DNA of 30,282 nt, from IMG/VR virus record IMGVR_UViG_2671181050_000003; one strand, 5' to 3'. Origin of the DNA: a virus. Taxonomy: Duplodnaviria; Heunggongvirae; Uroviricota; Caudoviricetes. Both the position numbers and the translations under genes were made by a program. This document shows, piece by piece, positions 19,640 to 22,726 of this stretch (position 1 is the first letter of the stretch; each line of letters opens with the position of its first letter). The notes below the pieces were generated by a model. It ran no database searches, was not told the origin of the DNA, and saw only the letters and a program-made list of their open reading frames with translations.

Positions 19640-20341
19640 TCAGAATTCAAATTGTCTTGCCCGCAGGCTTTTCAGCATTGGCATGGCCCGCTGGATAACG
19701 GAACTTGACATGTCGAGACGTGTTACCTCCCTTAGTAGCGCGTCTCTGTTCTTCGTCACCATGTAGATGGTCTCAAACGCAATGTCATACAGCTTGTTCG
19801 TGTATGAGGAGTTCAGCTCTTTCATTATGGGGTACAGCTGCTTGCTAAGGTCCTGGGCTTTTTCCATCCAGAGTTGCATGTAGCAAAGGAGGATGATTTC
19901 CTCGGCTGTGAATTGTGGCTGAATCTGCGGCTGCTGTTCGGTTGGTGCTGTTTTTCCCTGGCTGAAATAGCAGTCTTCCAGTTTTTCGAACACTTCCCAC
20001 GCCTGATCGGTTTCGAGCATTTTTGCGTGACGGGCTGCGCCGCGTTCTGTCCAGAGGATGAGGGAGCGAACATTGCGGGCGATTTTCACAGAGTAACTTT
20101 CTGTTACCTCGCGGCTAACAGACTCGCTTAAAGATAGTCTGTGCTTAAACTCACGTAGTTCATTCCCTTCCAACTTAAAGAAATGTTTTCCCTGTACAAA
20201 TCGCGCAGAGTTACGGGAAAAATTCATTTTTATATTGACTGTTTCAGTGCCATACAATTGCGCCAATAATTCTGTAGTAATTACGGGGATCTGGTTGTAG
20301 GCAATTGGGGAAAGAGTTTCAACGGAAATTTGAGTCGCCAT
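19640..20341 (-). CDS. Phage antirepressor / Roi-like DNA-binding protein (233 aa)
   Basis: N-terminal ORF6N/KilA-N-like segment (ELLAQLYGTE...NFSRNSARFVQGKHFFKLEG) plus a C-terminal helical domain; position between the replication and nin genes. Confidence 0.6.
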   Translation of the reverse strand: MATQISVETLSPIAYNQIPVITTELLAQLYGTETVNIKMNFSRNSARFVQGKHFFKLEGNELREFKHRLSLSESVSREVTESYSVKIARNVRSLILWTERGAARHAKMLETDQAWEVFEKLEDCYFSQGKTAPTEQQPQIQPQFTAEEIILLCYMQLWMEKAQDLSKQLYPIMKELNSSYTNKLYDIAFETIYMVTKNRDALLREVTRLDMSSSVIQRAMPMLKSLRARQFEF

Positions 20342-20609
20342 GACAACGCCCTCTGGTTGATGAATTTAACTATCACCACCGTCAGGTGCAAATCTTTGGG
20401 TGGTGAGACGTACAGGGTTTGCACTACCGGATCAACCAACCGGCGAGCCTTTCGGCTCCCCCATACGCCCCACCATAATTCAGATGTGCGTGTGCTTACG
20501 ACAACAAAAAACACGCTCGCGGCGTGTGTCTGTCGCGGTTGAATATCCGGGGTGCAAATCCCGACGCCAGATTTTGCTGGCGTGCGAAGAATATAATCCC
20601 GGATATGTG

Positions 20610-20638
20610 TTGTCGTCAACATACCTTGAATGTATATA
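20610..20638 (+). promoter_or_regulatory. Candidate sigma-70 promoter (TTGTCG, 17-nt spacer, TATATA) for the toxin-antitoxin operon
   Basis: Hexamers read directly; the predicted start site is only a few nt before the first candidate ATG, giving a leaderless or short-leader mRNA. Confidence 0.4.
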
Positions 20639-20649
20639 ACAAATTTGTT

Positions 20650-20991
20650 ATGTTTACTCTCATGAACTACATTATCGAATACTACAGTGACGAGGTTGAA
20701 GCTGAGATCCTTTCTCTTCCTGAGACCTTACAAGCCCGGTACATTCGGTACACGGAGAAAATGCGTATTTACGGAGCTAATCTTGGTTCCCCGCATACAG
20801 AGGCATTTGGCGACGGTTTGTTTGAAATCCGCCTTAAGGGCTCGGAAGGCATAGGGCGTGTTTTTTACTGCACGCTAAAAGGAAAGCGAATCATTATGTT
20901 GCATAGCTTTGTAAAGAAAACGCAAAAAACTCCACCTGCCGAGCTTAGAAAAGCTGAAACCAGAATGAAGGAGGTTAAGCATGACTGGTAA
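20650..20991 (+). CDS. RelE/ParE-superfamily toxin, Gp49-like / HigB-like (about 110 aa)
   Basis: MNYIIEYY...LPETLQARYIRYTEKMRIYGANLGSPH...FEIRLKG...RVFYCTLKGKRIIMLHSFVKKTQKTP fits my recollection of the Gp49-like toxin family; 3' end overlaps the antitoxin start by 11 nt; start is 20650 or 20662 (no ribosome-binding site at either). Confidence 0.7.
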   Translation: MFTLMNYIIEYYSDEVEAEILSLPETLQARYIRYTEKMRIYGANLGSPHTEAFGDGLFEIRLKGSEGIGRVFYCTLKGKRIIMLHSFVKKTQKTPPAELRKAETRMKEVKHDW

Positions 20992-21289
20992 ACGTACCCC
21001 ACCTACCATGACACACGATGAAATGGTAGAAAAAATGTTGTCTAACCCCGCAGTAAAAGCAGAATACGACGCCATCGCCGATGAATTCGCACTACTTGAT
21101 GAAATGCTGGCAGCACGAAAAGAAGCTGGCTTAACCCAGGCTGAAGTTGCTGAACGTATGGGAACAAAAGCGACTGCGATAACCAGAATGGAAAGCAATC
21201 TTGCATCAGGTACAAGCGGCCCATCATTTGCCACACTGAAAAAATTCGCCCGTGCTACAGGGAAAAAACTCCAGATCCGCTTCGTTTAA
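20981..21289 (+). CDS. XRE-family helix-turn-helix antitoxin, HigA-like (102 aa)
   Basis: AAGGAGG ribosome-binding site; helix-turn-helix GLTQAEVAERMGTKATAITRMES; toxin-first operon order as in higBA. Confidence 0.75.
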   Translation: MTGKRTPPTMTHDEMVEKMLSNPAVKAEYDAIADEFALLDEMLAARKEAGLTQAEVAERMGTKATAITRMESNLASGTSGPSFATLKKFARATGKKLQIRFV

Positions 21290-21343: not shown

Positions 21344-21589
21344 TCACCGGATTACCACATCCCACTCCGGCTCCTGCCATCTCAAATCCGGTGAATCATT
21401 TCTCTCAGGAATAACCATTACGTCCTTTTCCCTTCGCTCCCTTTCTATCGCCATCACAGCCAATGCTGCAACCATGATGTATTTTTGTTCGTCGGTTCCT
21501 GTTTCATAACGACGCATGAGGGTAAACTCGGGGCGATCAGTAACCTCAATGATTTCGTTAATTTCTTTAATTTCGCGAGGAATATCCAT
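21344..21589 (-). CDS. Hypothetical protein (81 aa)
   Basis: ATG preceded by AAAGGAGA; fills the gap between the antitoxin and the zinc-ribbon gene; its start overlaps the plus-strand start at a CCATGG palindrome. Confidence 0.35.
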   Translation of the reverse strand: MDIPREIKEINEIIEVTDRPEFTLMRRYETGTDEQKYIMVAALAVMAIERERREKDVMVIPERNDSPDLRWQEPEWDVVIR

Positions 21590-22262
21590 GGGTTTAGTCT
21601 CCTTTGATATCACATGCCCGCACTGTTTAAAAGAGCGAGCTGTTATTGAGGCATTTGCCGAAAAACAAATTGAAAAAACACCTTTTTTTAACGTCGCTTT
21701 TGTATGCAGAAGTTGTCATCGAGGAGGTGTTGCTATTGTTGAAATCCCATCAGACCACTATCACGGTCCCATGGCGGAAAGCCAGAAAAAAGACCTCGAT
21801 ATTCTGATTTCAGGAAATAGCCAGTACCGTTTCCGCAAGATCTATCCTGTGGTCAAAAAAATTACCGCACCAGAATATACGCCCCCGGTTGCAGACCGTA
21901 CTTTTGTTGAGGCAAAAGAGGATTTACAGAGGAGGCGGTACGACACAGTGGTTATTCTTTGTCGCAGAGTCCTCGATATCTCCACGAAAAAACTGCTCGG
22001 CGATGAAGCAGGAAAAGAATCGCTGTCGCAACGTATTCAGATGATTTACAAAAAAGGCCTGATCACTGAACAGATGAAGGAATGGGCTCATATTGTACGA
22101 ATTGATGCCAATAAAGCAGTTCATACAGATGAAGTTTTCACACCAATTGAGGCAAGCCAGATCCTGAGTTTTACCGAAATGTTTTTAGTCTACGCCTTCA
22201 CTCTGCCTGCAATGGTGGAAGCCAGACGTGAACAAAAAAGATCAGATTCAGCCTCTATATGA
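21588..22262 (+). CDS. Zinc-ribbon protein with a DUF4145-like C-terminal helical domain (224 aa); candidate defense protein
   Basis: Start taken at MGLVSFDITCPHC with a GAGGAA ribosome-binding site. CPHC...CRSC four-Cys pattern at the N-terminus; C-terminal region (...IVRIDANKAVHTDEVFTPIEASQIL...) resembles DUF4145 as I recall it; opposite strand to flanking phage genes. Confidence 0.55.
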   Translation: MGLVSFDITCPHCLKERAVIEAFAEKQIEKTPFFNVAFVCRSCHRGGVAIVEIPSDHYHGPMAESQKKDLDILISGNSQYRFRKIYPVVKKITAPEYTPPVADRTFVEAKEDLQRRRYDTVVILCRRVLDISTKKLLGDEAGKESLSQRIQMIYKKGLITEQMKEWAHIVRIDANKAVHTDEVFTPIEASQILSFTEMFLVYAFTLPAMVEARREQKRSDSASI

Positions 22263-22294
22263 ATCACTTTTCTGAACACGTAAGCCCCCGTCAT

Positions 22295-22726
22295 TCACGA
22301 CGGGGAGAACATCAATCCCTCTGCACTCCCTCGCCAGAATGCCAGCACACGCTGCATCGTTTCGCTGTTACGGCACTCGCGACAAATTGTGTTGTAGCGT
22401 CTGTCGTAGCGCCGTATTTCCCCATCTGGTAATGCCCGGATAAGGTCTGGATCAACGACAACCGGTTTCTTCGACTTTGCCCTTGAGAGTTTTTTGCGGG
22501 CATTTTGCCAGTCCTTACGAGCCTGTTCAGACGGGAATACTCCGTAACCGGAATTGTAAACATCACCACTGGCGGCCAGCTCCATGCATAAACGACCGAC
22601 AGACGCATGACTGACACCAATTTCATCCGATAACTGCCGAATCGTGCCTCGTCCGTTAAGGCGTACGAATTCCACGATCAGCCCCTTAATTTTTTCCCGC
22701 TCTTCTGGTGTAAATGCTCTTGTCAT
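22295..22726 (-). CDS. Hypothetical DNA-binding protein, winged-helix-like (143 aa)
   Basis: GGAGGTG ribosome-binding site before the ATG (MTRAFTPEE...); the track's first codon is a GTG; early-right operon position after the replication genes. Confidence 0.5.
   Translation of the reverse strand: MTRAFTPEEREKIKGLIVEFVRLNGRGTIRQLSDEIGVSHASVGRLCMELAASGDVYNSGYGVFPSEQARKDWQNARKKLSRAKSKKPVVVDPDLIRALPDGEIRRYDRRYNTICRECRNSETMQRVLAFWRGSAEGLMFSPS

Follow-up and report, generated by a model that had tools for sequence, protein, structure and literature searches.

A remote relative of RAZR encoded head-to-head with a small partner gene: a candidate abortive infection system in a lambdoid prophage

What function is served by a phage gene that is oriented against the operons around it? 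The question is raised by IMG/VR virus record IMGVR_UViG_2671181050_000003, a stretch of 30,282 nucleotides from a member of the Caudoviricetes (hereafter the window), in which a plus-strand open reading frame (ORF) of 224 amino acids (aa) at positions 21588-22262 lies among minus-strand phage genes. The initial annotation of this ORF, made from the sequence without database searches, proposed a single-gene anti-phage defense protein with an N-terminal four-cysteine pattern and a C-terminal DUF4145-like region, situated next to a toxin-antitoxin (TA) pair and not recognized as any named system. The analysis reported here leads to a reading in which the product would be a RAZR-like sensor-RNase acting through abortive infection, with the product of a small divergent gene as the off-switch sparing the lytic cycle of the prophage itself. 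A probability of roughly 0.6 is assigned to this reading. The relationship of the protein to RAZR, the pairing of the two genes and the explanations that compete with this reading are considered in turn.

Protein architecture and relationship to RAZR

The coordinates, strand and length originally given for the ORF are exact and are confirmed by RefSeq, where the identical ORF is entered as WP_032144013.1, a "DUF4145 domain-containing protein." Translation starts at ATG 21588, with a Shine-Dalgarno (SD) sequence, GAGG, located 7 nt 5' of it, and terminates at a stop codon at 22260-22262. The N-terminus MG(L/I)L... is common to the homologs, and the start is therefore placed here and not at the upstream ATG at 21516. 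The DUF4145-like domain of the initial annotation was recovered by the profile search called for at the time, with Pfam DUF4145 (PF13643) matching aa 118-197 (E = 3.9e-9; 36.9 bits against a gathering score of 23.1). The phrog_1305 profile, which bears the PHROG label "DNA binding protein," covers the full-length protein (E = 1e-63), and a search of NCBIfam returned no match. The region is 100% identical to Escherichia phage PhiR5_2, a lambdoid phage, and copies that are ~98% identical are present in the Shigella Stx phages 75/02 and POCJ13.

The protein comprises a zinc ribbon, a family-specific insert, a proline-rich linker and a predicted HEPN RNase domain (Table 1). The four-cysteine pattern noticed at the outset corresponds to two CxxC knuckles, C10/C13 (CPHC) and C40/C43 (CRSC), which are invariant in 32 close homologs and nearly universal in 128 distant representatives. 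In the AlphaFold2 (AF2) model of the protein (pLDDT 88.6) the ribbon consists of strands at residues 4-8, 18-27, 33-40 and 46-52, with the knuckle loops present, and the broad family profile gives weak matches to the zinc ribbons of RPB9/RPA12/TFIIS, 1QYP among them. The insert is the most variable segment, its column identity of 0.14 being the lowest found anywhere in the broad alignment. Within the linker P87 is invariant, and P95 and P99 are at least 90% conserved. The C-terminal domain has the alpha-helical HEPN fold, and the closest solved folds found by Foldseek include the HEPN-MNT toxins 5YEP and 7AE2. The residues of its R171-x7-H179 motif, with N175 between the predicted catalytic pair, are kept in 120, 125 and 127 of 129 sequences; the x7 spacing is the same as that of RAZR and unlike the canonical Rx4-6H. 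Purifying selection on the four cysteines, the linker prolines and the Arg, Asn and His residues is evident across the 128 representatives, whose median identity to the window protein is 30%. The only low-confidence stretch of the AF2 model (pLDDT <50) is aa 172-179 (22101-22124), the loop between Arg and His, which may represent a conformational switch on activation or mere model uncertainty.

A domain order of this kind is known from PD-T7-4, renamed RAZR for ring-activated zinc-finger RNase (Zhang et al., Nature 2026; PMC13017515). RAZR begins with an N-terminal Cys4 zinc ribbon, designated the zinc-finger domain (ZFD), which a conserved linker joins to a C-terminal DUF4145 domain; the latter is a divergent HEPN RNase, and its R146 and H154 are essential for defense. 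The protein is inactive until triggered by phage proteins. It forms a 24-mer around ring-shaped phage proteins, namely Gp77 of SECphi27 and the portals of T3, T7, and SECphi18, and once assembled cuts single-stranded RNA non-specifically, whereupon translation stops and infection is aborted. Specificity is determined by the ZFD, the most variable part of RAZR, and the protein works alone from its native promoter. The zinc-ribbon comparator chosen by the authors was 1QYP, and RAZR^Ec originates from E. coli UMB1727 (PDB 9Y9C/9Y6U; all PMC13017515).

For comparison with the window protein, RAZR^Ec (219 aa) was rebuilt from two database fragments; the published positions V21, AGN68-70, Q140, R146, H154, and D179/D180/R184 all fit the rebuilt sequence. 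A single-sequence phmmer search of the PDB returned nothing, even at E <= 10. A narrow profile made from the 32 close homologs found the RAZR chain 9y9c_OA at E = 0.096 only, with R171 and H179 already aligned with R146 and H154. With a broad profile of 115 representatives the same chain became the top PDB match (E = 3.5e-7; 33.3 bits) through two collinear segments, the first aligning both knuckles with C16/C19 and C49/C52 (7.8 bits) and the second spanning the linker and the HEPN domain (22.9 bits). The hhalign comparison with an alignment of the RAZR clade gave a probability of 97.8% (E = 1.2e-12; 123 columns; 24% identity) over window aa 85-212 and RAZR residues 64-190, and placed R171 and H179 exactly on R146 and H154. 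As judged from these profile comparisons, the homology to RAZR is remote but real.

The two proteins share the order of their parts, a Cys4 zinc ribbon, a proline-containing linker and a DUF4145/HEPN domain, and are of similar size (224 and 219 aa). The spacing of the catalytic Arg and His is identical, and in each of the two the zinc-ribbon region varies more than the rest. They differ in the insert of ~30 aa that separates ribbon and linker in the window protein, in sequence, the HEPN domains being about 24% identical and the ribbons aligning at the CxxC knuckles only, and in genetic context. The RAZR^Ec gene lies downstream of an integrase in the same orientation and is without a small partner, whereas the gene described here is a counter-oriented prophage gene that is usually paired; no homolog of the small partner protein was found when RAZR-clade loci were searched. 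In the hhalign alignment the residues of the RAZR dimer-dimer salt bridge, D179/D180/R184, correspond to V201/Y202/L206. The PADLOC model for PD-T7-4 (PDLC04109) matches the window protein at E = 0.0022 (15.5 bits; aa 85-183 against model positions 64-158 of 211) and matches 18 of 32 family members, the best at 2.8e-7. Given the divergent ribbon, the additional insert, the non-conserved interface residues and the partial, weak match to the PD-T7-4 model, the protein appears to belong to a large sister family of RAZR and not to RAZR proper. The statement of the initial annotation that no named system could be recognized is thus superseded, since RAZR is a named relative with the same architecture, though one that is reachable by profile methods only. 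Database relatives of the RAZR HEPN domain itself are mostly 146-169 aa long and start at the linker (MIxP...) or with a single CxxC knuckle (P0084-P0203); DUF4145 proteins with half a ribbon or with none appear to be common, unless these entries were truncated by gene callers.

The sister family is large. An exhaustive profile search recovered 3,384 clusters (at 50% identity) at E <= 1e-3, of which 211 reached E <= 1e-30; most matched end to end. Relatives are found on at least 104 IMG/VR viral contigs and in genomes of Enterobacter, Tatumella, Rosenbergiella, Photorhabdus, Gilliamella, Citrobacter, and Symbiopectobacterium, with further examples in one Lysobacterales bacterium, one Zoogloeaceae bacterium, Sphingomonas, and Paraburkholderia. 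In E. coli the gene is rare, being detected by megablast in 37 of 5,426 complete genomes and located on the chromosome every time. Prophages of Pantoea, Enterobacter, and Paraburkholderia carry the homolog as a solitary gene, with every phage gene around it on the other strand. In all 66 de-duplicated loci most of the coding sequence that flanks the gene is oriented against it (median 84%), and both nearest neighbors are counter-oriented in 41 of 67 loci. Prophage accessory genes ("morons") typically show such counter-orientation, which agrees with the presumed expression of the gene in the lysogen.

Two further observations concern the structure of the gene within the family. One member (P0259) is 417 aa long and carries the zinc-ribbon and HEPN unit at residues 200-411, behind an N-terminal extension of ~200 aa. 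Two E. coli alleles form a mosaic in which the last 39 aa are 95% identical, the ribbon 78%, and the insert, linker and HEPN core 50-63%, a pattern that suggests recombination within the gene.

The small partner gene and its pairing with the HEPN gene

The HEPN gene overlaps at its 5' end with a small gene on the minus strand. The minus-strand ORF is 89 aa long, and the corresponding RefSeq product, WP_001624507.1, is 81 aa long. This ORF is protein-coding: it is matched end to end by phrog_8371 (E = 7e-56), and pairwise differences of 0.38, 0.30 and 0.57 at codon positions 1, 2 and 3 provide a coding signature. An AF2 model, built from a shallow alignment, contains a conserved core of ~55 aa that forms a three-helix bundle (pLDDT 85-91) and a disordered tail. 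At the CATG junction between the two genes the SD sequence of each lies within the first codons of the other, with the consequence that the 5' ends of the two mRNAs must be antisense to each other. A minus-strand SD-like motif is present in codons 2-7 of the HEPN gene in 18 of 31 paired loci, compared with 4 of 35 unpaired loci.

The arrangement is conserved among distantly related phages. Across all fetched loci, tblastn identified homologs of the small protein at 32-52% identity (E down to 3e-12) in many distant phages, positioned directly upstream of the HEPN gene and divergent from it. A partner homolog of ~60-80 aa stands beside the HEPN gene in 40 of 66 distinct family loci, and the exact CATG register is maintained in 32 of these 40, including loci from Paraburkholderia, Gilliamella, and Tatumella. 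In the reciprocal search from the small protein, 47 of 55 viral contigs were found to carry a member of the HEPN family. The eight exceptions belong to one E. coli lineage like phiSTEC1589-Stx1c, in which another gene fills the slot. Because a head-to-head partner is conserved to this extent in the clade, the designation of the system as "single-gene" in the initial annotation is doubtful. A head-to-head cassette with a small partner has not previously been described for RAZR.

In phiSTEC1589-Stx1c itself the slot (L002:4303-5105) is occupied on the minus strand by a hypothetical protein of 166 aa and on the plus strand by a possible ORF of 96 aa. Among the complete E. coli genomes the HEPN gene was counted in 37 and the small gene in 48. 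A looser linkage read from these counts was rejected as partly an artifact, as megablast missed divergent HEPN alleles; strain JNEC-KY176, for example, carries the small gene (95% nucleotide identity) beside a divergent allele that was missed in this way.

The position of the cassette differs from phage to phage. In the window it is located between lambda-P-type replication genes and NinB/DUF1367, in Photorhabdus next to genes for holin and lysozyme and to a ParE-HTH pair, in Gilliamella beside SSB and YqaJ, and in Paraburkholderia in a region also encoding a YqaJ-family protein. The cassette thus moves as a unit. Divergence of the partner correlates with that of the distal HEPN core with a rho of 0.82, as against 0.46 for the adjacent zinc ribbon. 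The two E. coli alleles are 95% identical in the C-terminal helix and 50-63% identical in the middle of the protein. Taken together, the correlation and the allele pattern suggest that the sensor end has been exchanged or diversified independently.

Decayed and interrupted copies of the locus were also encountered. Contig 1 of Symbiopectobacterium sp. RP (L022-L026) contains at least five remnants composed of the partner gene and the first 19-27 codons of the HEPN gene, while contig 2 (L009) carries an intact cassette; the remnants look like decayed prophage copies within the genome of a symbiont. In E. coli S1-CAM-02-A (NZ_CP145707.1; L168:3001-4630) the HEPN gene is interrupted by an IS3-family element, which is situated directly downstream of the truncated ORF. 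The nucleotide match to the HEPN gene breaks off after 375 of its 675 bases, and the small partner is undamaged, making this strain a natural knockout.

Proposed mechanism and competing explanations

Defense, the role originally proposed, is the best reading of the HEPN gene because the protein is a remote homolog of RAZR/PD-T7-4, an experimentally validated abortive infection RNase. By analogy, the Cys4 zinc ribbon probably senses a phage protein, and the R171...H179 dyad of the HEPN domain would form a composite RNase site upon dimerization. The lysogen would express the protein from the strand opposite to the lytic operons. During superinfection, an assembly of proteins made by the incoming phage would activate the putative RNase, leading to RNA cleavage, arrest of translation and abortive infection. 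The partner gene is co-oriented with the lytic operon and is consequently well placed to act as an off-switch when the prophage is induced. Transcription reading through from the early operon would cross the entire HEPN gene in the antisense direction, after which the small gene would be translated. The most likely role of the partner is that of an off-switch, which could work as an RNase inhibitor protein, by antisense or transcriptional interference where the two 5' ends overlap, or in both ways.

This layout recalls the logic of the Tha/Ith system, in which a prophage HEPN defense protein is accompanied by a small antisense-encoded inhibitor. Tha, found in S. aureus prophages, is a HEPN RNase triggered by tail proteins (Rostol et al., Nat Microbiol 2024; PMC11087260). 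Ith is the 66-aa product of an overlapping antisense gene, and both this product and antisense transcription shut Tha off at induction (PMC11087260). The cassette described here resembles Tha/Ith in that a small (~60-80 aa) overlapping gene on the opposite strand accompanies a prophage HEPN gene. However, tha and ith converge and overlap at their 3' ends (80alpha), whereas the present genes are divergent with a 2-nt overlap of their start codons, and Tha is without a zinc ribbon and has an Rx4H motif (PMC11087260). Homology between the systems was rejected, with scores of 2.0 bits for Tha-1 and -0.8 bits for Ith-1 against the respective family profiles. A second point of comparison is BstA/aba, comprising a prophage abortive infection protein of Gram-negative bacteria whose locus also holds an element that shields the lytic cycle of its own prophage (Owen et al., Cell Host Microbe 2021; PMC8585504). 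The present locus is likewise hypothesized to carry an element protecting the prophage's own lytic cycle, but its effector is unrelated to BstA, and the self-immunity element is DNA in that system while the candidate here is a protein-coding gene.

Other known defense proteins are more distant in their organization. DS-38 of DefensePredictor (WP_001313577.1) is a validated E. coli defense protein with HEPN and zinc-finger parts that has been compared with PD-T7-4 (Science 2026; PMC13092281). Identity with DS-38 was rejected, as DS-38 is a 366-aa protein with an N-terminal HEPN domain and a multi-zinc-finger region at aa 206-364, the opposite domain order. BxaP (PMC10799925), Ishtar (bioRxiv 2026.07.06.735840), HepS (PDB 9OIK), and RnlA/LsoA are further HEPN/DUF4145 defense proteins; they have other partner domains, and none has an N-terminal zinc ribbon or a head-to-head small gene. 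The HEPN toxin LsoA has been solved together with Dmd, a small T4 phage protein annotated as an antitoxin (PDB 5HY3).

A more elaborate version of the off-switch reading is tentative and less likely than not. Here the pair would be a mobile two-gene immunity cassette with mutually exclusive expression, a cognate inhibitor and an exchangeable ribbon, and would constitute an invention, by Gram-negative prophages, of the Tha/Ith principle from non-homologous parts and independently of Tha/Ith. Lysogenic transcription would turn the sensor-RNase on, and lytic read-through would both silence it and produce its cognate protein inhibitor, so that the prophage would not set off its own defense. Mutual exclusion would be brought about by the overlapping start codons and by the position of each ribosome-binding site inside the other gene, and the zinc ribbon would be a swappable module for specificity, situated between an inhibitor and a HEPN core that evolve together.

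Several observations weigh against a RAZR-like sensor-RNase controlled by a dedicated partner. Pairwise similarity to RAZR is limited to about 40 aa (BLASTP against RAZR^Ec, 40 aligned residues around the active site at 35% identity). The homology of the zinc ribbons amounts to the 7.8 bits reported above, is driven by the two CxxC knuckles, and falls outside the hhalign alignment, and the match of the window protein to the PD-T7-4 model is weak and extends over 45% of the model only. The RAZR structure 9Y9C is not among the top 50 Foldseek matches. As the salt-bridge residues D179/D180/R184 are not conserved, a mechanism based on rings or oligomers may not apply to this protein; these positions vary inside the RAZR clade too, and hence are weak counter-evidence. 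A strict sigma-70 promoter scan found no promoter upstream of 21588. For the small partner, searches of Pfam, PDB sequences and folds yielded no family, no sequence and no informative fold. Finally, 26 of the 66 relatives are without a partner, most of them belonging to a clade of ~210-aa proteins (N-terminus MAMLSID...; L005, L013, L085, and about 20 further loci), and some E. coli phages of the phiSTEC1589 type have the partner without the HEPN gene, so that the pairing is not obligatory. The genes of the ~210-aa clade are still counter-oriented and adjoin terminase small-subunit sequences (L005/L006, L013), with a lysis cassette on the other side in L005/L006.

The departures from pairing in both directions, together with the sufficiency of RAZR alone under its native promoter (PMC13017515), favor an alternative in which the HEPN protein is a true single-gene RAZR-type defense, accompanied through mere linkage by a small divergent phage gene to which it is unrelated. 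This explanation is unlikely in view of how the pair is distributed and how it has diverged. The two genes recur together in Enterobacterales, Gilliamella, Photorhabdus, and Paraburkholderia at different positions in the phage genome, and the 2-nt overlap of start codons is fixed in 32 of 40 cases. In addition, divergence of the small protein tracks the distal HEPN core and not the adjacent ribbon, which is the opposite of what simple linkage predicts.

HEPN toxins are common in TA systems, and the pair could also be regarded as a TA-like addiction module, composed of a HEPN toxin and a small antitoxin, that stabilizes the prophage and has no primary role in phage defense. The existence of the small partner, the presence of HEPN-MNT toxins among the nearest solved folds, and the classical TA pairs that adjoin the cassette in the window and in Photorhabdus are all compatible with a module of this type. 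However, RAZR is inactive before it is triggered by phage proteins (PMC13017515). The divergent genes do not form an operon and so are without the usual layout for co-transcription and autoregulation, and no MNT neighbor, the partner expected in a HEPN-MNT type II TA system, is found among the flanking genes. The 26 partner-less relatives, moreover, keep the catalytic residues, which is hard to square with a constitutively active toxin, and an addiction module is accordingly thought quite improbable. Nucleic acid binding is common among zinc ribbons, the gene is carried by phages and PHROG labels the family "DNA binding protein," yet a role in the phage lytic program (host RNA degradation, takeover or regulation) or as a nucleic-acid-binding regulator is very improbable, since the gene is counter-oriented to lytic operons in 66 of 66 loci, the conserved R-x7-H dyad of the HEPN domain argues for catalysis, the closest characterized relative is a defense RNase, and the PHROG label is an annotation and not a tested function.

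Genomic neighborhood and implications

The surroundings of the cassette in the window (Table 1) agree in part with the initial annotation. The HEPN gene is indeed opposite to the phage operon, the flanking genes DUF977/Ren-like, DUF1627, DnaC-like, and O, as well as Ant and NinB, all being on the minus strand. The TA pair, likewise opposed to the phage operon, is upstream on the plus strand, as had been described, but is not directly adjacent, as the 81-aa minus-strand gene at 21347-21589 lies between. Nor do the TA pair and the HEPN gene form one system: the pair is a separate and separable module, absent from the loci of most relatives. The content of the TA slot varies in sister phages, with a different two-gene plus-strand pair in phiSTEC1589 and an additional HigA gene in E. 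coli JNEC-KY176. Adjacency to a TA pair recurs in Photorhabdus, where the ParE-HTH pair adjoins the cassette (L015:6844-7526). The best sigma-70-like site of the region, TTGACG-18-TATATT (10/12 matches), is located at 20590-20619 on the minus strand; it points leftward to the anti-repressor gene (19640-20341) and lies inside the gap that also precedes the toxin gene. Downstream of the HEPN gene, the hairpin between the convergent stop codons is a possible bidirectional terminator on weak evidence. Its folding energy is not exceptional (z = -1.56), it is without a U-tract, and it was not called in a terminator scan.

Table 1. Features of the HEPN gene, its partner and neighboring genes in the window
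Feature	Position	Strand	Details
RAZR-like zinc-ribbon + DUF4145/HEPN gene	21588..22262 (stop codon included)	+	224 aa; ORF, RefSeq, Pfam, phrog_1305, AF2
Zinc-ribbon domain, aa 1-55	21588..21752	+	Four beta-strands; two CxxC knuckles (codons of C10 at 21615, C13 at 21624, C40 at 21705, C43 at 21714); Cys conservation, AF2 model
Family-specific insert, aa 56-85	21753..21842	+	Helix 61-68, strand 81-86 (model); outside RAZR alignments
Proline-rich linker, aa 86-99 (P87, P95, P99)	21843..21884	+	Aligns with RAZR linker, residues 64-79
HEPN/DUF4145 RNase domain (predicted), aa 100-224	21885..22259	+	Predicted catalytic R171 (22098-22100) and H179 (22122-22124); N175 between
Small partner gene	21344..21589 (stop codon included)	-	81 aa; divergent from HEPN gene; phrog_8371, RefSeq WP_001624507.1
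CATG junction	21587..21590	.	Two divergent start codons overlapping by 2 nt
GC-rich 7-bp hairpin, CCCCGTC-N6-GACGGGG	22286..22305	.	In 32-nt gap separating convergent stop codons; -14.9 kcal/mol
Gp49/RelE-type toxin	20662-20991	+	PF05973, E = 5e-27
HTH_3 antitoxin	20981-21289	+	Partner of the Gp49/RelE-type toxin; upstream of HEPN gene

If the RAZR-like reading is correct, RAZR-type sensing would extend beyond one family, and the combination of a zinc ribbon with a HEPN RNase would be spread across a large and diverse sister family that is largely missed by current detection models. The zinc ribbons of this family would then probably recognize other phage proteins. The head-to-head partner would provide a tractable E. 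coli system for the question of how prophage abortive infection spares its own phage, which has been answered so far for Tha/Ith and BstA/aba, and a lysogen of PhiR5_2, for which the deposited host is MG1655, is suitable for such study. The partner itself may be a ready-made inhibitor of a RAZR-like RNase. The cassette is also a clean case of start codons that overlap between two divergent genes, and would lend itself to work on reciprocal antisense control.

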